64,000 bases of DNA from Candidatus Levyibacteriota bacterium. GTDB lineage: Bacteria; Patescibacteriota; Microgenomatia; Levybacterales; UBA12049. The notes below the pieces were generated by a model. That model saw only the letters and a program-made list of their open reading frames with translations, was not told where the DNA came from and ran no database searches. The stretch lies in contig PJMG01000006.1 in assembly GCA_003173895.1 (NCBI GenBank), forward strand, positions 2,820 to 66,819. The letters are read 5' to 3'. The translations under genes were made by a program, and so were the position numbers. Positions 24,707-57,706 of this stretch are shown here, piece by piece (the stretch's first letter is position 1; each line of letters opens with the position of its first letter).

Positions 24707-26143
24707 TTAGAATAAATTCCAGAGAGCTTGATTAGTTATCTCGTGATGATAGATGACTTCAGAATTTTTAACTCTAGTTCCTAATTCACGAGGTGAACGA
24801 TCTGCCGCTAGCTGTTTAAAATAGGCATATTTTTCTTTATTATCAGAACCTAAAATTTTTCCTACAAAATCACTTGCTTTGAATAATTTTAAAGCATCAC
24901 TAATAGTTCCAGGTAAAAATCTAAGTCTATCTCGTTTGCTTTCATCCTTTTTTAATTTTTCACCTTCTAAACCTGTTTTAAGTAAAGTATAAAACCATAA
25001 ATATGGATTAGTATCTGGAGCTACTGAGCGAATTTCTATTCTCGCAGTTTTCTGATTTCCTACTGGAATTCTAATCATCGAACCTCGATCAATAGGCGAA
25101 ACTTTTATTTGATTTGGCGCTTCGAAATGTGGATCAAGTCTTCGGTAAGCATTAACACTGGAATTTAAAACTAAACAAATCTCCGGTGCATGATTTAAAA
25201 GTTTTAAAATAAAATCCCAAGCGAGTGGAGATAAACTTTCTTCTCCAGACTTTTCATAAAAAGCATTCCTTCCATTTTTAGACAGGGAAAAATTCGTATG
25301 CATACCACTACCATTAATTCCCATTATGGGTTTGGGTAAAAAAGAAGCAGTCATACCCATTTTATTAGCCACTTGGCGACAAACTAATTTATAAAGTTGA
25401 ATTTGATCAGCAGCACGAACTATATCTGTATAAGAAAAATTCATTTCGAACTGAGATGGTGCTACTTCTGGATGATCTTTTTCATTTTTAAAACCCATGG
25501 CTCTTTGTGCCTCTGCACATGAATCGATAAACTGTCTAAGTTTATCCATAGGAAGTGAATGATAATATCCTCCAGTAGTAATCAGCTTAAACCCAATTTT
25601 TTCATCATACTCTGCCTCAGCATTCATTCCATCCAGTAAAAACCCTTCTATCTCAGCCGAAGCATTTGCAGTAAAACCCTTTTTAGTTTTTAAATCATTG
25701 GCATATTTTTGTAAAAGACCACGAAAATCAGATTCATATTGAGTTTTATCTCTACCTAACACGTTAGCAAACATAATAACTTTCCCAGGGCCAAATAAAT
25801 CAGATGGAAGCCACATAAAACTTCCCCAATCAATAGAAAGTCTCAAGTCAGATTCGCTTTGAGCAGTAAAACCTCGGATAGAAGATCCATCAAAAGTCAA
25901 ATTATCTGAAGAATCGAGTAAAAACTTCTTATCATAATCCAGCATGTGAAATCTACCTTCTATATCGGAAAAACAAAGAGTTATGGCTTTAATTCTTTTC
26001 TCTTTTTTTAAGTATTCTCTATATTCTTCTTCTAATTTTTCTGGAGCAAGAGTAAATCTCTTTTCTTTGGCGGCTAAATTTCTTTCTTCTAACTCATCAT
26101 AAGGAATTTCTAAAAAGTTTTTTAATTTATTTTCCTCAAACAT
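24707..26143 (-). CDS. glnA: glutamine synthetase family protein (type I-like, 478 aa)
   Basis: KPIMGINGSGMHTNFSLS (NGSGMH motif), DTNPYLWFYTLL (NPYL), IEIRSVAPDTNPYL. Confidence 0.75.
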   Translation of the reverse strand: MFEENKLKNFLEIPYDELEERNLAAKEKRFTLAPEKLEEEYREYLKKEKRIKAITLCFSDIEGRFHMLDYDKKFLLDSSDNLTFDGSSIRGFTAQSESDLRLSIDWGSFMWLPSDLFGPGKVIMFANVLGRDKTQYESDFRGLLQKYANDLKTKKGFTANASAEIEGFLLDGMNAEAEYDEKIGFKLITTGGYYHSLPMDKLRQFIDSCAEAQRAMGFKNEKDHPEVAPSQFEMNFSYTDIVRAADQIQLYKLVCRQVANKMGMTASFLPKPIMGINGSGMHTNFSLSKNGRNAFYEKSGEESLSPLAWDFILKLLNHAPEICLVLNSSVNAYRRLDPHFEAPNQIKVSPIDRGSMIRIPVGNQKTARIEIRSVAPDTNPYLWFYTLLKTGLEGEKLKKDESKRDRLRFLPGTISDALKLFKASDFVGKILGSDNKEKYAYFKQLAADRSPRELGTRVKNSEVIYHHEITNQALWNLF

Positions 26144-52032: not shown

Positions 52033-53664
52033 CTAATCTTTTGGAGGATCTAATCTTCTAGTAATATCATTAATTAGTCTTTCTACTACATATTCAGGAA
52101 CTCTGTCTTCTTCTGCTAAAGTTTGACAGTGACCCCATACTGTTAAATCAACTCCATCTATAAGTCCAGATAAATGTTCATTCTCATGGAAAGCTGTTGG
52201 TTGATTTACATTGTAATCATATTCTTCTCTTAATCTTTTAGCTAATTCTTGAACTTGCTTACTACTTAGATTAACTCCAATACTTGCTGCTCTTAATAAA
52301 GATACAAATTGTTGTACTTCTTTAGAATATCTTTGATCAGTTAAAAAAACTTTTAATCTTTGTGTATTTTGTGCTGAATAAGCAGTATTTTCACCTTTAT
52401 TATTAAGACCATCTAATCTAGCTGGTTGAATATTTAAATTCATACCATCAATATAGTTTAAAGCTACTAAATATACTTTTTCTCGTATTCCGTGCCACCC
52501 TACTCTAAATCTCTCAGTTGAAGCTACAAAAACTCCTTTTTCAGGATCAATAGAATAATTTCCTGTTATTCCTCTAGATACCATTTCTCTAGCTGTACTC
52601 TGCAATTTTGTTTTAGTGTCTATATCCAATTGATCAAAAAGAGTCATATTACCATCGATTATCACAGGAATTCCTCTTTTTAAATGAGCAGCTGTAGTGG
52701 CTTTTCCGATATTTGCTATTTGAGAATCATCAAATGTACAAGTAGCATAGTCATCGATTCTTAAACGACCCTCAGTAATCATAGTATAAATATCAGCTGC
52801 AAGCATTGTATCTGTAACCGCTGGTGCCATAGGTGTATTAAGATTAACTACTCTATACACATCTGTTAAATTTTCAGGTACAGAAGGTGGAATTTTAGTC
52901 AGCTCTAGATATTGTTTACTTGTTCCAACTGATACAATTCGAGCTTTAAAAGGTAAACCTAAAGCATTAACCATTTTTACATAATCATTGTACATTCTAA
53001 TAAAATATTTTAGTCTATCTGAAGTACTTACTCCTCGTCCAGGATCTTCAAAAATAAGAATTTGTCCCCCTTCAGGCAAAACATTAGACATAGCATGGAA
53101 AGCTCTACTATATAAATCTAAAAATGTGGTTCCTGAGGAAACTAAAATAGGATCTGAACTATCCCTTTTATCCATATGTCTTAATATATTACGCAAAAGA
53201 AGTATATCAGGAGTTCCAGCACCTCTTTGTTCAGCTTCATGTCTTATGATATCACTATCTAGCATTTCTACTACACCTACTGTAGCTCGTGAAGAATGAT
53301 TATTAGGTTCTAGATAAGGATTGATTCCAAAAAATGTATCTCTATTAAAGAATGGCATACTTGCCAGCTTATCTAAATGAGCTCCTGTTCTACCACAACC
53401 TATATCCCAAACTGTTAAGTGTATATCAGTAGCACCTAATACATGTTTAAGATCAAAATCTTCAATATAATTCTCTGCAGTAGGAACAAATAATCTTTCT
53501 ATTGGACCACCAATTACACTAATTTCTATATCAGTAAGCCTGGTTAATAAACTTTGATAAGCCTCACTATCACTAAATGCAGCTAGTATCCTTTGTTGAG
53601 GAGTAGGTGTATTTTCGCCTGGATTAACAGGCATTTGGTTTGGATTATTTAGTAATTCTCCCAT
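52033..53664 (-). CDS. hypothetical protein with N-terminal class I SAM-methyltransferase-like motif (island)
   Basis: VWDIGCGRTGAHL resembles MTase motif I (DxGCGxG); the rest is not recognisable. Confidence 0.5.
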   Translation of the reverse strand: MGELLNNPNQMPVNPGENTPTPQQRILAAFSDSEAYQSLLTRLTDIEISVIGGPIERLFVPTAENYIEDFDLKHVLGATDIHLTVWDIGCGRTGAHLDKLASMPFFNRDTFFGINPYLEPNNHSSRATVGVVEMLDSDIIRHEAEQRGAGTPDILLLRNILRHMDKRDSSDPILVSSGTTFLDLYSRAFHAMSNVLPEGGQILIFEDPGRGVSTSDRLKYFIRMYNDYVKMVNALGLPFKARIVSVGTSKQYLELTKIPPSVPENLTDVYRVVNLNTPMAPAVTDTMLAADIYTMITEGRLRIDDYATCTFDDSQIANIGKATTAAHLKRGIPVIIDGNMTLFDQLDIDTKTKLQSTAREMVSRGITGNYSIDPEKGVFVASTERFRVGWHGIREKVYLVALNYIDGMNLNIQPARLDGLNNKGENTAYSAQNTQRLKVFLTDQRYSKEVQQFVSLLRAASIGVNLSSKQVQELAKRLREEYDYNVNQPTAFHENEHLSGLIDGVDLTVWGHCQTLAEEDRVPEYVVERLINDITRRLDPPKD

Positions 53665-53914
53665 AATATTTTGCCTTAAAGCCGTATGCGAATATTATCC
53701 TATATTACGACTAAATTAACCCATATTATATAATAATGTCTAAAAAATGTCAACACTATGCGACAGCTCTCTTATTCTAGAAAAGAGTGAATTTTCTAAT
53801 TTTTACAGTACAATATAGCACTGGTGGAAAGAAGTTTTTTACTTTAAAATTTGAGATTTTTATTTTTTTTAAACGGGTTGCGAAGTGGAAACTAATCTTA
53901 AAATATGTCCTATA

Positions 53915-54301
53915 TTATTGACCGGGCTCCTTTTCTAACGCCTCTACTATGAGTTGTCTTAACTCTTCTTTATCCAAAGTTCTTGAATAGTCCCCTATTT
54001 CAACTTTCCATGTAGTTTCATCTACTCTAGTTACACCTGTAGGTTCTGTAGGTAAATAACTCCATCCAGGATTTTCAGTAAATTCAGTAAATAATTTAGC
54101 TATTTCTGGATTAATGGCTAAACTTATAACTGTACTACCCACTTTAGCATCAAGTGCTTGCATTAAAAGACTTAAACTAATATTTTTACCCTCTCCAACT
54201 GGAATTAAAACAGGTCTTTGTGAATCTATTGAAATATCATTTAGCCAATCTGGTAACTTACCTGCCCTAATTAATGGGTGTTCATTTTCATTAGCTGACA
54301 T
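53915..54301 (-). CDS. hypothetical protein (island)
   Basis: ORF only. Confidence 0.4.
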   Translation of the reverse strand: MSANENEHPLIRAGKLPDWLNDISIDSQRPVLIPVGEGKNISLSLLMQALDAKVGSTVISLAINPEIAKLFTEFTENPGWSYLPTEPTGVTRVDETTWKVEIGDYSRTLDKEELRQLIVEALEKEPGQ

Positions 54302-54373
54302 ATGGATATTTTAGCAAAATTAAATTTTGTTTTCTATTAAAGTATATATTCTCAGTTAATTTTATTACTCGCG

Positions 54374-54898
54374 CTAAGATTCTAATTCAATAAGTCCTTT
54401 GTCGCTATCAATTTTAACCATATTTAAGAGAGTTGTTGCGTCTTCAAGTCTTTGTCTTGCTTTTTCTAATTCTGTTTCTGCTGATGTAACTCCTGTTTTA
54501 GCAGAATCCATTTCGTATTCAGCTTCTTTTACGACTGCTACAATATTTTCTCTTGCAAGACGCTTAAACAATTTATCGGCGTAGGGAAATTTTAATTCTA
54601 ATAATCTAGTGAGGAATAAAGTTTCTTCAACTGTTGCACGTCTATTTATTAATGGAGATAAATCAAACGAATTTCCTCCTTGAGCTTCTGATTGAATCAG
54701 AAAAACTCCTTTAATTTCGCCGTCTCCATATCTAGGAGACGCAAAAAGATTTAGATTCACTGGTTGTGATAAGTATGAAATACCTGGAATTTGATACGTA
54801 ACGTTAAATTGTTCAGCTCCAGGAGTTCCTAAAATGCGCAATTTTTCCGCTTCTGTTTGGAAATCTTGATTTGGTAGTGAATATTTTTCTATTGACAT
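54374..54898 (-). CDS. hypothetical protein (island)
   Basis: ORF only. Confidence 0.45.
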   Translation of the reverse strand: MSIEKYSLPNQDFQTEAEKLRILGTPGAEQFNVTYQIPGISYLSQPVNLNLFASPRYGDGEIKGVFLIQSEAQGGNSFDLSPLINRRATVEETLFLTRLLELKFPYADKLFKRLARENIVAVVKEAEYEMDSAKTGVTSAETELEKARQRLEDATTLLNMVKIDSDKGLIELES

Positions 54899-54995
54899 AA
54901 CTTATTGACTATACTATATCTTGTAATTGTATTCAAGTTCCTAGACATATTAATTAGTGTAACCATTAATAACTTCATTTCAATGATTTACTGAA

Positions 54996-55583
54996 TTACG
55001 AACCTTTGCTTAAAGCTAGGAGTACCAATGGCCCTGATGGCTCTTTGGTATTATCACTAGTTTCCCCTTTTGCGAACGTGCTATATACTTGACCTACCAT
55101 AGGTTGAGTATCTCCAGATGCTTGAATTAAACTTGGATCTTTAGAAATCATTTGTCCTACTACATTCATACCCCACCAACTATCATTTAAAGCCTCTTGT
55201 CCAGGCATTAATACTTGTTTTTGCACATCATATATTAAAGCATTAGAATTCCCATTTAGTGAATAAACGTTTACTATTAAATCTCTCTCATCTCTACCTG
55301 ACTGACGAGAGGTAATAGGATAATTTCTAGCTACTCTAATTTTTATACCCTGATTAACTAATTTCAGATTATGTAAATCAACCTCTTCTATTCTACCTAC
55401 TTCACCAGCCAGATTTTCTGGTGTGGGAATAAAATGACTATGATTTGCTTCTGAACAAGCTGTAAGCAGCATATCTGCTAACATGGGTAGTCCTAGAGTT
55501 ACTGCAGTACCCCATTTTAAAAATCCTCTTCTATCCATGGTTCTTTTAGGTGTAATTTGCTTTTCTGCTTCTGAATTTAACAT
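54996..55583 (-). CDS. predicted Tat-exported lipoprotein (island)
   Basis: TMDRRGFLKWGTAVTLGLPMLADMLLTAC carries the twin-arginine consensus RRxFLK, a hydrophobic core and an L-T-A-C lipobox. Confidence 0.55.
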   Translation of the reverse strand: MLNSEAEKQITPKRTMDRRGFLKWGTAVTLGLPMLADMLLTACSEANHSHFIPTPENLAGEVGRIEEVDLHNLKLVNQGIKIRVARNYPITSRQSGRDERDLIVNVYSLNGNSNALIYDVQKQVLMPGQEALNDSWWGMNVVGQMISKDPSLIQASGDTQPMVGQVYSTFAKGETSDNTKEPSGPLVLLALSKGS

Positions 55584-55586
55584 GCT

Positions 55587-56219
55587 TTATATTTCTCCTC
55601 TCTCTGCTCTTAATTGAGCCTGATCTCTATTAGCTATAACGTGATGTGTTATTATTTCTGGTTGATCAACATATCCTAATATTCCTCTATCTGCTACCAA
55701 ATCATATTTCTCTTTCACAGTGGAAAGTTTTGATAAGGCTACAGCTGCTGTTCTGGCAGAATCAATAATTATTTTTGCTACTGTTTCACCAGTACACCAT
55801 ACTTCATATTGTCTTTCTTTTCCTATTTTCTCTGGATGACTTGCTCCAAATCTAGTATGACGAATAAGATCATTATTGTTATAAGTGTGAACATTTTCTG
55901 TATTAAGATCCCCGTAGATGGCGTTAATAAGGAATTTAACAGAACTATTTATAGCTAATCCTATACCATCTTCTCCTGCAATAGTGAAGATTGCTACCAT
56001 TGCTGGTGTCCAAGTTGGATAATATTCTCCAAAGTCGTTAAAAAGATCATCAACTGCAGCTAATATTGCCTCACCATAATGTACTTCTCCTCCTTGAGAT
56101 AATAATTCTAAAAAGTGTTTTTCAATTCGTTGGTTTAGTGCAGTTACAGGTTTTTTTATAGTACCAAGCTCACTTTGATAGCTAACTTCCCCTTTAGCTA
56201 AATCAGCTAAATATCCCAT
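55587..56219 (-). CDS. hypothetical protein; probably the C-terminal part of a gene split by an in-frame TGA (island)
   Basis: Same frame as 56253..56531; the 33 nt between read through as NPEQAEYAEVA. Confidence 0.45.
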   Translation of the reverse strand: MGYLADLAKGEVSYQSELGTIKKPVTALNQRIEKHFLELLSQGGEVHYGEAILAAVDDLFNDFGEYYPTWTPAMVAIFTIAGEDGIGLAINSSVKFLINAIYGDLNTENVHTYNNNDLIRHTRFGASHPEKIGKERQYEVWCTGETVAKIIIDSARTAAVALSKLSTVKEKYDLVADRGILGYVDQPEIITHHVIANRDQAQLRAERGEI

Positions 56220-56252
56220 AGCTACTTCTGCATATTCAGCCTGCTCTGGATT

Positions 56253-56531
56253 TCAGGTCATTTCTACATGATAGTGAGGTGAATATTTTATAGGTAAATT
56301 TAGTTGATCAGTTTGAGCGGTAAGTTGAGGATGCATATCTCGGTAATACCCTCCTCTATATTCTGTACCATCTATTTTATTAAATATACTTACATCTTTA
56401 AAAATATCATTTACTTGAGAAAAGGTAGGATTACCTAATTTACCACGGAGAATTTCTTTTCGTCCACGAGGTCCCTGATTTGGTTCTACTGACATGCGCA
56501 ATATAATAACACCTATTATTTCAAAATGCAA
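56253..56531 (-). CDS. hypothetical protein; probably the N-terminal part of the split gene (island)
   Basis: Ends at TGA 56253-56255, in frame with the next ORF. Confidence 0.4.
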   Translation of the reverse strand: MHFEIIGVIILRMSVEPNQGPRGRKEILRGKLGNPTFSQVNDIFKDVSIFNKIDGTEYRGGYYRDMHPQLTAQTDQLNLPIKYSPHYHVEMT

Positions 56532-56642
56532 ATTATAGGATTAGGTTTATTTCACAGGATAAGTTTTAGCAAAGTTATACACCATTTTTTGTGAATGTTT
56601 ATCCCAATCTCCAGAAAAGGATGAGTGATTATGTTTAATTCG

Positions 56643-57515
56643 CTATTTTCTGATTGATCTAACCAGAGGATATCTTTCAGCGACTTGTGGAAGACTATAG
56701 GTTTTTGCTCGTAATGCTCTTATAAATTCTGGACCCCAAGGTGTTAATTCTCCAAGCCTAGTATCTTCATTATTTAAAACATTCTCTGAAAGAAATTTAG
56801 TTAAAAAAATAGTTACAATATATATAACTAAAGGATTACTAACTACATCAGGTAGAGAAACATCTAAGGGGCTTATGGGATGAAAGTCGAAAGGTAAACC
56901 TGTGACACGAGATACTGCGAGAGCTGTAAAAAGTAAAACTCCAGCTAAATCTCCTTTATTAATAGTTGTTAGATGTTTTATTCCAAGATCAGTTATTCCC
57001 TCAATTAAAGCCTGATTTATAACAGAAGCTCTGACAGCAGTATTTCTAAGAGTCTCATCTTTTTTATGAGTTTCATCATTTATTCTCTGTTGAACCAAAG
57101 TTATTACACCATTACCCCAACGAGCTCCATGAGGAATTCTTCTCTCATTCATTGCTTCTAACTCTGCTCTACTTATAGGTTTCTCACCTGTAGCAACTGC
57201 TTCACCTGTACCAGCATTTCCTGCTAATCCACTAATTTGTATGCCAAAATTATTTCTCTGTACATTTGTATCAACACCTATTGTAATTTTCCCTAAACCA
57301 AAAGATCGACAAGCAGTTGCCATACGATCAAAATCAATTACTATTTCCTCTGACATTTCTTTTGGAGCAATATTCGTTAACCCTTCAATTTCAAATGTAA
57401 TGGTTTTTTTACCTGGATCTGAAATTGTAATATTTCCTGCTTCAGTTAGTTCTCTTAATGTAAGGGTTCTTTGTTCTCTTAATGGGCCATTTTGTTCAGG
57501 TGAGGAATTAGACAT
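56643..57515 (-). CDS. hypothetical protein (island)
   Basis: Intact ORF; no domain. Confidence 0.45.
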   Translation of the reverse strand: MSNSSPEQNGPLREQRTLTLRELTEAGNITISDPGKKTITFEIEGLTNIAPKEMSEEIVIDFDRMATACRSFGLGKITIGVDTNVQRNNFGIQISGLAGNAGTGEAVATGEKPISRAELEAMNERRIPHGARWGNGVITLVQQRINDETHKKDETLRNTAVRASVINQALIEGITDLGIKHLTTINKGDLAGVLLFTALAVSRVTGLPFDFHPISPLDVSLPDVVSNPLVIYIVTIFLTKFLSENVLNNEDTRLGELTPWGPEFIRALRAKTYSLPQVAERYPLVRSIRK

Positions 57516-57706
57516 AGAGGAACTTTACCAAAAAATTTTGGACATGTCAATTATAGGACAGTTTCTCTAAAACATATAAGTGTTTTTTTAAATAAAACTC
57601 AGATAATTGCTCCAGGCCAAACGAGTCAGAAATATAACCTAAGTTACATAGTATTTATAATGCTGTAAAACAAGGTGATTTTAGTACTGCTTTAAAAGAA
57701 ATAATT

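Follow-up and report, generated by a model that had tools for sequence, protein, structure and literature searches.

An In-frame TGA Interrupts a Conserved 302-Codon Gene in a Standard-Code Levybacterales Genome, Probably Marking a Young Pseudogene

Organization of the Locus

The window—that is, the whole 64,000-nucleotide stretch of Candidatus Levyibacteriota contig PJMG01000006.1 that was analyzed—carries on its minus strand four consecutive ORFs, 56643..57515, 56253..56531, 55587..56219, and 54996..55583, all lying in one reading frame (start coordinates all 2 mod 3), as had been noticed in an earlier, sequence-only reading. That reading regarded the shared frame as significant at 1/27; however, 15 of the 43 neighboring same-strand gene pairs in the window share a frame, near the expected one-third, and runs of three same-frame genes were found four times. 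Since the two middle ORFs are fragments of one gene, as described below, the pattern shrinks to a run of three same-frame genes, and it is due to chance. Unlike this coincidence, the junction at the TGA lies, by homology, far beyond chance.

The first of the four ORFs (56643..57515, minus strand) encodes 290 aa, has its own leaderless-type promoter (TTGACA-17-TAAAGT at 57522-57550), and ends with a TAG at 56643. The 111 nt separating it from ORF 56253..56531 contain two in-frame stops, and it thus lies outside the fusion; it is an independent gene that has the frame in common by chance only.

The last ORF (54996..55583, minus strand; 195 aa) begins with an ATG at 55581-55583, three nt (AGC) past the TAA that ends the broken gene, and is preceded by the Shine-Dalgarno-like sequence AGAGAGGAG (55595..55603, minus strand), whose GGAG lies 11 nt before ATG 55583 and which is among the few Shine-Dalgarno-type starts in the window. 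Its product contains a twin-arginine motif (DRRGFLKW) and an LTAC lipobox, and is thus a predicted Tat-exported lipoprotein, with the Pfam TAT_signal model matching at E=0.0037 and 17.6 bits, under the cut-off of 22.7 bits. The RRGFLK motif, the lipobox, and a GGAG of its own make plausible the earlier suggestion of an independent, closely coupled gene, which would be separate from the broken one. A single-sequence AF2 model of the product reached a pLDDT of 30.7, too low to be of use. Neither this gene nor any other of the window's neighboring proteins was found beside members of the broken gene's family at 11 other loci.

Apart from the sub-threshold Tat signal, no Pfam or NCBIfam family was found for any of the four ORFs. 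The composition is uniform, the region and the remainder of the window having equal GC content (31-34% GC for the genome). A tblastn search with a homologue against phages and plasmids gave no match, and no PHROGs matches were obtained for ten proteins of the region; together with the uniform composition, these results give no evidence of a mobile or foreign island.

One Ancestral Gene in Two Pieces

The two middle ORFs are separate entries, of 92 and 210 aa, in the protein collection (source NCBI). Comparison with homologues strongly supports the reading that they derive from a single ancestral gene (55587..56495, minus strand), as its N- and C-terminal portions, this gene comprising 302 codons and a TAA, running from ATG 56495 to TAA 55587, and interrupted at codon 81. 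The N-terminal fragment (56256..56495, minus strand) has 80 codons (MSVEPNQ...HYHVEMT) and is followed by the in-frame TGA (56253..56255, minus strand), whereas the C-terminal fragment, the 210-aa protein P0001 (55587..56219, minus strand), extends from the ATG at 56217-56219 to the TAA at 55587-55589. The 33-nt "spacer" between the TGA and this ATG (56220..56252, minus strand), previously described as reading through smoothly, is indeed stop-free and consists of 11 codons, NPEQAEYAEVA, which match positions 73-83 of the family profile (tpeQrpYvaat). It remains coding sequence of the ancestral gene, carrying the nearly invariant Gln of the motif (Q85). The practical use of this result lies in annotation, where the entries of 92 and 210 aa should give way to a single interrupted gene of 302 codons with its start at ATG 56495.

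For the family, 107 representatives were found, nearly all of them (about 105) contiguous, junction-spanning proteins of 260-340 aa, and none is split at the TGA site; the comparison with homologues that the sequence-only reading had proposed thus turned up contiguous proteins rather than two separate genes. The closest homologue, P0002 (292 aa), is contiguous, with 50% identity at 96% coverage of length (49% identity for the N-terminal fragment), and reads HVEMTWTPDQ where the window reads HVEMT-stop-NPEQ. The family profile matches the N-terminal piece over positions 7-71, ending at the last residue of the fragment, and the C-terminal piece over positions 73-286, starting from the first residue after the TGA, with no indel. 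The TGA therefore stands at profile position 72, in place of a conserved aromatic codon. Among 34 aligned homologues, those most closely related have Trp at this position and all others have Phe, within the conserved motif YHVE(M/S)(T/S)(W/F)TxEQ. At the codon level, TGG is present at two homologous loci (L001 and L002), TTY at four others, and TGA in the window, with TGA and TGG being one G>A transition apart. The gene thus appears as two ORFs because a conserved TGG (Trp) reads TGA in this genome. The proposal of a gene of about 300 aa broken by one stop is therefore borne out by the contiguous homologues, by Trp or Phe at the stop site, and by conservation across the junction.

In the 35-sequence alignment, the window copy matches all invariant columns and, where a column is nearly invariant, has the residue that is conserved there. 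No rate acceleration of the window copy relative to P0002 was detected with five outgroups. As the nearest homologue is just 50% identical, purifying selection since the mutation is not measurable.

Start Signals

A TG-extended promoter-like site, TTTGCA-18 nt-TATTAT (56503..56532, minus strand), precedes the proposed start, with its -10 element ending 7 nt before ATG 56495; the database TTG start at 56531 falls within its -35 hexamer. The homologue at L001 has an upstream region of the same layout, with TTGACA-17-TACATT, then 6 nt, then ATG. Leaderless-type promoters were found for 30 of 59 genes in the window, compared with 10% of internal ATGs, and the site at 56503..56532 is of this leaderless type, as is usual for starts in this genome. 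That about half of the window's genes have such promoters is perhaps more interesting than the stop itself.

Upstream of ATG 56219, neither a promoter-like site nor a Shine-Dalgarno sequence is present, and in the homologue an internal Phe occupies the position of this ATG. A plausible Shine-Dalgarno/ATG combination after the TGA with no conservation across the junction, which had been named as telling against a single broken gene, is thus not what is found. Furthermore, distances of ~20 nt almost abolish translational coupling (PMC10666635), and reinitiation 33 nt downstream of the TGA should be inefficient.

Genetic Code and Recoding Signals

The window contains 191 TGG codons and one in-frame TGA in 18,065 codons, and its 62 genes end in TAA (51), TAG (8), or TGA (3). 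One of the TGA-ended genes encodes a histidine kinase, the last domain of which finishes 4 residues before the stop. When TGA was read as sense (code 4), the broken-gene locus was the only real ORF pair to be merged. The low-GC Patescibacteria (CPR) genome of the window uses the standard code, and a table 4 UGA-to-Trp code was rejected as a candidate on these counts. As to the use of TGA as a stop elsewhere, for which a check had been advised, TGA ends three of the 62 window genes. The idea of a locally different code in foreign DNA fails likewise, given one in-frame TGA, three genes ended by TGA, and a uniform composition.

A search for a SECIS-like hairpin 3' of the TGA found none: the minimum free energy was -14.5 kcal/mol, and shuffled sequences averaged -14.2 (z = -0.13). 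Rfam gave no relevant match, the single match at E<=1 being a chance sub-threshold lncRNA at 57074-57173. Neither Cys nor Sec occurs at the stop site in any aligned homologue, all having Trp or Phe; with no SECIS-like fold either, the suggestion of selenocysteine is not upheld. A stop codon at the homologous site is absent from all homologues, though the sequence downstream is conserved, and programmed read-through of a conserved stop was rejected as a candidate since no homologue has a stop there. No tRNA genes were found within the window or on L001.

The Protein Family

The family of the broken gene is uncharacterized and has a length of ~285 aa. An AF2 model of a homologue (pLDDT 92.8) forms one compact domain in which the Trp of the stop site sits between a strand (58-66) and a helix (70-87); the 210-aa piece would thus be predicted to begin mid-helix. 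The sole invariant residue of the family is a Cys in the motif W-C-x-G-x-x-x-A, located just before a long helix, an arrangement resembling the Cys-ligand loop and L helix of cytochrome P450. P450 was also the best local hhalign match of the family, but at a probability of 0.4%, and cytochrome P450 has ~400 aa compared with ~285 aa here. No match to Pfam p450 (PF00067) was obtained for 85 family members even at E<=10, no sequence match for the family was found in the PDB, and Foldseek against the PDB returned nothing. There is a slim chance that the family could represent a miniature P450-like heme-thiolate protein. The family is rare, and its predicted fold—confidently modeled, essentially new, and with a P450-like Cys motif—is perhaps of more interest than the stop.

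Origin of the Stop Codon

The stop is an ordinary nonsense interruption and not a recoding signal. Its best explanation is probably a recent TGG>TGA transition that left a young pseudogene in a standard-code genome. In such a scheme, a single G>A transition would have turned the conserved Trp codon TGG into TGA at codon 81 of 302, with GC>AT transitions being the expected mutational bias in a genome of 31-34% GC. Translation of the leaderless mRNA from ATG 56495 would then end after 80 residues because of the TGA at codon 81, and the 210-aa database "gene" would be the rest of the frame from the first fortuitous ATG. Since this piece lacks a promoter and ribosome-binding site, would start mid-helix, and is missing conserved residues of the N-terminus, a young pseudogene is the most likely state of the gene, which at the very best would be severely impaired. 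The frame shows no other decay, suggesting that the mutation is recent; a single lesion in the gene points either to a very young pseudogene or to a lesion that is not genuine. We infer that the cells do carry the stop and have lost the protein; however, an otherwise intact frame would be expected just as much from a consensus error or from a tolerated leaky stop as from a very recent mutation.

The most serious competing explanation, though an unlikely one, is that the organism carries TGG and an intact 302-aa gene, with the TGA having entered the MAG consensus through an error in base calling or consensus building, or as a rare variant that became fixed there. The intact remainder of the frame, with conserved residues at all invariant and nearly invariant positions, and the lack of rate acceleration would be expected of such an artefact or minor allele, and the assembly is of metagenome type (a 76.7-kb contig). 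In addition, the Logan assembly of SRR490139 breaks up in this region; its contig L004, the only independent one of the same organism, is identical to 54360-55592 and ends before the TGA. On the other hand, the TGA does not lie in a homopolymer (its context is ACCTGAAAT), consensus sequences rarely contain substitution errors, and stop-creating consensus errors are probably far rarer than genuine nonsense pseudogenes. Furthermore, a near-identical, TGG-bearing full-length protein is absent from a collection of 5.8 billion clusters. The 210-aa product was not on record when public assemblies were checked for exact matches, scans of genome contigs and metagenome contigs revealed no relatives of this fragment, and a word-indexed protein search with the family profile gave 3 matches only.

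It is improbable that the TGA is real but leaky—that is, that tRNA-Trp, either as a near-cognate or in a variant form whose anticodon stem has 4 bp, decodes it at a useful frequency, restoring the ancestral residue and yielding some full-length functional protein from a gene under selection. Natural UGA suppression inserts Trp, which is exactly the residue of the ancestral protein, and the gene shows no further decay. However, basal read-through normally amounts to a few per cent only, the single in-frame TGA stands against 191 TGG codons in a genome where TGA serves as a true stop, no homologue has a stop at the site, and neither a stimulatory RNA structure (z = -0.13) nor a relevant Rfam family was detected. 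Precedents exist, with UGA-to-Trp decoding having evolved in another Patescibacteriota family, JAKLIH01, and with a 4-bp-stem tRNA-Trp(CCA), which enables UGA read-through, being the sole tRNA-Trp(CCA) in ~6.5% of standard-code bacterial genomes (PMC13092985). If the TGA were read through as Trp, the locus would be informative about the first steps of UGA reassignment in CPR bacteria with reduced genomes.

Still less probable is a genuine split, in which N- and C-terminal proteins of 80 and 210 aa, the latter made via reinitiation at ATG 56219, work separately or as a complex. Such a split would agree with the in-frame ATG 33 nt past the stop and with the separate database entries. It is opposed by the missing promoter and Shine-Dalgarno sequence at ATG 56219, the alignment of this ATG with an internal Phe, the failure of coupling at ~20 nt (PMC10666635), and the absence of any split among about 105 homologues; moreover, 11 conserved codons, including that for the nearly invariant Gln, would be lost, and the C-terminal piece is predicted to begin mid-helix. 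Selenocysteine, or foreign DNA with a local or alternative genetic code (table 4 or 25), is effectively refuted: in its favor stands just the occurrence of an in-frame TGA in a CPR genome of low GC, and some CPR lineages do reassign UGA (PMC13092985), but homologues have W or F and never C, the downstream fold is no better than shuffles and has no relevant Rfam match, TGA terminates three genes (e.g., the histidine kinase), code 4 rejoins no other gene, and the region has the GC content of the rest of the window and no phage families.

Comparison with Known Systems

Bacterial selenoprotein genes likewise have an in-frame UGA inside a conserved coding region; however, theirs is directly followed by a SECIS hairpin, which the window lacks, and the homologues here have Trp or Phe instead of Cys. 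With natural UGA suppression and UGA-to-Trp reassignment, as in Mycoplasmatales and JAKLIH01 (PMC13092985), the locus shares a UGA at a Trp position of homologues and a low-GC genome, and with JAKLIH01 also the Patescibacteria phylum. Genomes with reassigned UGA contain many in-frame UGAs and none where coding sequences end, whereas here there is one in-frame UGA and three genes end in TGA. The locus resembles nonsense-mutation pseudogenes mis-annotated as two ORFs, and in this respect has nothing distinctive: the downstream piece begins at the first fortuitous ATG, two neighboring ORFs in the same frame correspond to successive portions of a single family, and a single substitution (TGG>TGA) separates the stop from the sense codon aligned with it.

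Homology across the TGA codon

Four ORFs on the minus strand lie in a single frame, as the sequence-only reading had described: one of 290 aa (56643..57515), one of 92 aa called from a TTG (56253..56531, ending at the TGA at 56253-56255), one of 210 aa (55587..56219, ending at the TAA at 55587-55589), and one of 195 aa (54996..55583, with its ATG at 55583 lying 3 nt past that TAA). On sequence comparison, the two middle ORFs are one gene, and the earlier proposal of a gene of about 300 aa interrupted by a single stop is borne out by its homologues. A search with the read-through translation identified a contiguous 292-aa homologue (P0002) with 50% identity across 96% of the query, the alignment crossing the junction unbroken (P0002, HVEMTWTPDQLEYVEVAFGYLADLAKG; window, HVEMT*NPEQAEYAEVAMGYLADLAKG). 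Searched exhaustively with HMMER, 1.84 billion representatives yielded 107 family proteins (65 with E<=1e-10), of which almost all have lengths of 260-340 aa and cover both halves, and none is split at the TGA site.

Against a family profile built from 85 members, the N-terminal fragment matches positions 7-71, the last match being its final residue, and the stop-to-stop C-terminal fragment matches positions 73-286, starting at its very first residue; the TGA thus occupies exactly position 72, without an indel. The 33 nt between the TGA and the ATG at 56219 do read through, with 56220-56252 being stop-free and encoding NPEQAEYAEVA, and these 11 "spacer" codons align with conserved family residues, including a nearly invariant Gln. 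In a 35-sequence alignment, the TGA sits in the most conserved N-terminal motif of the family, YHVE(S/M)(S/T)(F/W)TxEQxxY, at a position where the four closest relatives have W and the others F. The corresponding codon is TGG in the loci of the closest homologues (L001 and L002), TTC or TTT in four other loci, and TGA in the window, with TGG to TGA requiring one G>A transition. No paralogue was found in the window with the family profile.

Two in-frame stops separate the 290-aa ORF from the 92-aa ORF, and the former therefore lies outside any fusion. The shared frame itself, previously regarded as a coincidence of about 1/27, is without significance: 15 of the 43 same-strand neighbour gene pairs in the window share a frame, runs of three same-frame genes occur four times, and the locus is such a run of three once both fragments are merged.

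No Pfam or NCBIfam model and no PDB sequence relative was found for this family of about 285 aa, and Foldseek returned no solved structure resembling its model. The AF2 model of P0002, computed with the family alignment (pLDDT 92.8, pTM 0.91), is a single compact domain, in which the Trp at the stop position is placed between the strand at 58-66 and the helix at 70-87. On the short metagenomic contigs that carry them, family genes stand alone, and their surroundings vary. The sole invariant residue is the Cys in YEVWCxGxxxA, just ahead of a long helix. The best hhalign local match pairs this Cys segment with the Cys-ligand loop of P450cam, at a non-significant probability of 0.4% and with three P450 sequences that are approximate; a P450-like heme-thiolate function is a doubtful prospect, to be taken as a lead only.

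Initiation signals

At 30 of 59 window genes, versus 10% of internal ATGs, there is a sigma-70-like promoter with its -10 element ending 4-11 nt upstream of the ATG, and SD motifs are rare and mostly at internal cistrons; leaderless mRNAs thus appear to be a common initiation mode in this genome. Starts with such near-ATG TTGACA/TATAAT-like promoters include 61792, 63825, 43802, that of 24707-26143, 57515, 56495, and 54301.

At the interrupted gene, a leaderless-type promoter (TTTGCA-18-TATTAT, 56532-56503, minus strand) precedes the ATG at 56495, whose product (MSVEPNQ...) aligns with Met-1 of P0002, and the TTG of the 92-aa database protein (56529-56531) falls within the -35 hexamer of this promoter. 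The database start at 56531 is probably wrong, and the ATG at 56495 is almost certainly the true start. The L001 homologue shows TTGACA-17-TACATT, then 6 nt, then ATG. Both genes on this 2.2-kb contig, which carries the closest intact homologue, have this promoter near the ATG in the leaderless style of the window; its ends (1-30 and 2125-2157) resemble partial tRNA ends by eye, and ARAGORN detected no tRNA in it.

Genomic context

A leaderless-type promoter of its own (57550-57522, minus strand) precedes the 290-aa ORF, for which Pfam, NCBIfam, and PHROG searches gave no homology. The 195-aa ORF encodes DRRGFLKW, a hydrophobic stretch, and a lipobox (LTAC), and scores below threshold against Pfam TAT_signal. 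It is among the few window genes with an SD (GGAG, 11 nt upstream, within the end of the interrupted gene), which fits an internal cistron of a putative two-gene transcript and agrees with its earlier reading as an independent, coupled gene; it is absent beside family members in the other loci examined.

The surrounding minus-strand genes (52033-59404 and 59935-60327; 543, 128, 174, 195, 302 [rejoined], 290, 565, and 130 aa) have no Pfam, NCBIfam, or PHROG matches, and most have their own promoter-like site. Since their GC content matches that of the remaining window, the run is lineage-specific ORFan content, not a compositionally foreign island. Elsewhere, the window carries ordinary bacterial genes (sigma-70, GlnA, Nramp, TrkH, ABC transporter, histidine kinase), with GlnA 80% identical to a Candidatus Paceibacterota MAG and 74-77% to Levy-/Daviesbacteria MAGs. 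This places the source among the Patescibacteria (CPR), and by exact look-up the window's proteins belong to a single NCBI contig of 76,714 nt. The sigma-70 homologue (907-3153; 748 aa, regions 1.2-4 at residues 487-736) is extended at its N terminus by about 480 residues without a Pfam match, and in an 803-aa protein (3202-5613) an O-antigen-ligase-like (Wzy_C) membrane domain is followed by TPR repeats at the C terminus.

Origin of the stop codon

The frame is otherwise intact, the window copy keeps the conserved residue at every invariant and nearly invariant position, similarity to P0002 is equal in the N-terminal (49%) and C-terminal (52%) parts, and relative-rate tests with five outgroups showed no acceleration (all chi-square < 3.84). 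The lesion is thus young, not real, or tolerated. A real, recent nonsense mutation, which would make this a young pseudogene, is the probable cause. A consensus error or a minor allele is a less likely source; the sole independent contig from this organism (Logan, SRR490139), which matches window 54360-55592 exactly, ends short of the TGA.

Partial suppression of a real stop by tRNA-Trp is improbable but conceivable in view of UGA-to-Trp reassignment and of tRNA-Trp(CCA) variants with 4-bp anticodon stems that enable UGA read-through (PMC13092985); no tRNA gene lies within the 64-kb window. A functional split into two genes is very unlikely, as no other family member is split and the ATG at 56219, which aligns with a Phe inside the homologue, has no promoter-like site or SD before it. 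Furthermore, termination-reinitiation was shown experimentally to be almost abolished by a distance of about 20 nt (PMC10666635), and the product would, according to the model, start mid-helix without the conserved N-terminal third.

Selenocysteine and a locally different code in foreign DNA, both raised from the sequence alone, are together of negligible probability: the 69-nt stretch beginning at the TGA folds like shuffles (z = -0.13) rather than as a SECIS-like hairpin, the only Rfam match is a chance sub-threshold lncRNA elsewhere in the region, homologues carry W or F rather than C, the 62 gene models (18,065 codons) hold 191 TGG versus this one in-frame TGA and stop at TAA (51), TAG (8), and TGA (3, including a histidine kinase whose last domain ends 4 residues before it), reading TGA as sense rejoins two real ORFs only here, and GC is 28-37% throughout, with no compositional break and no PHROG, phage, or plasmid matches at the locus. 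The genome uses the standard code. Overall, this is an ordinary nonsense-interrupted gene that the database lists as two proteins, and the CPR genome carrying it uses the standard code; the recently reported UGA-to-Trp reassignment belongs to a different Patescibacteriota family (PMC13092985).
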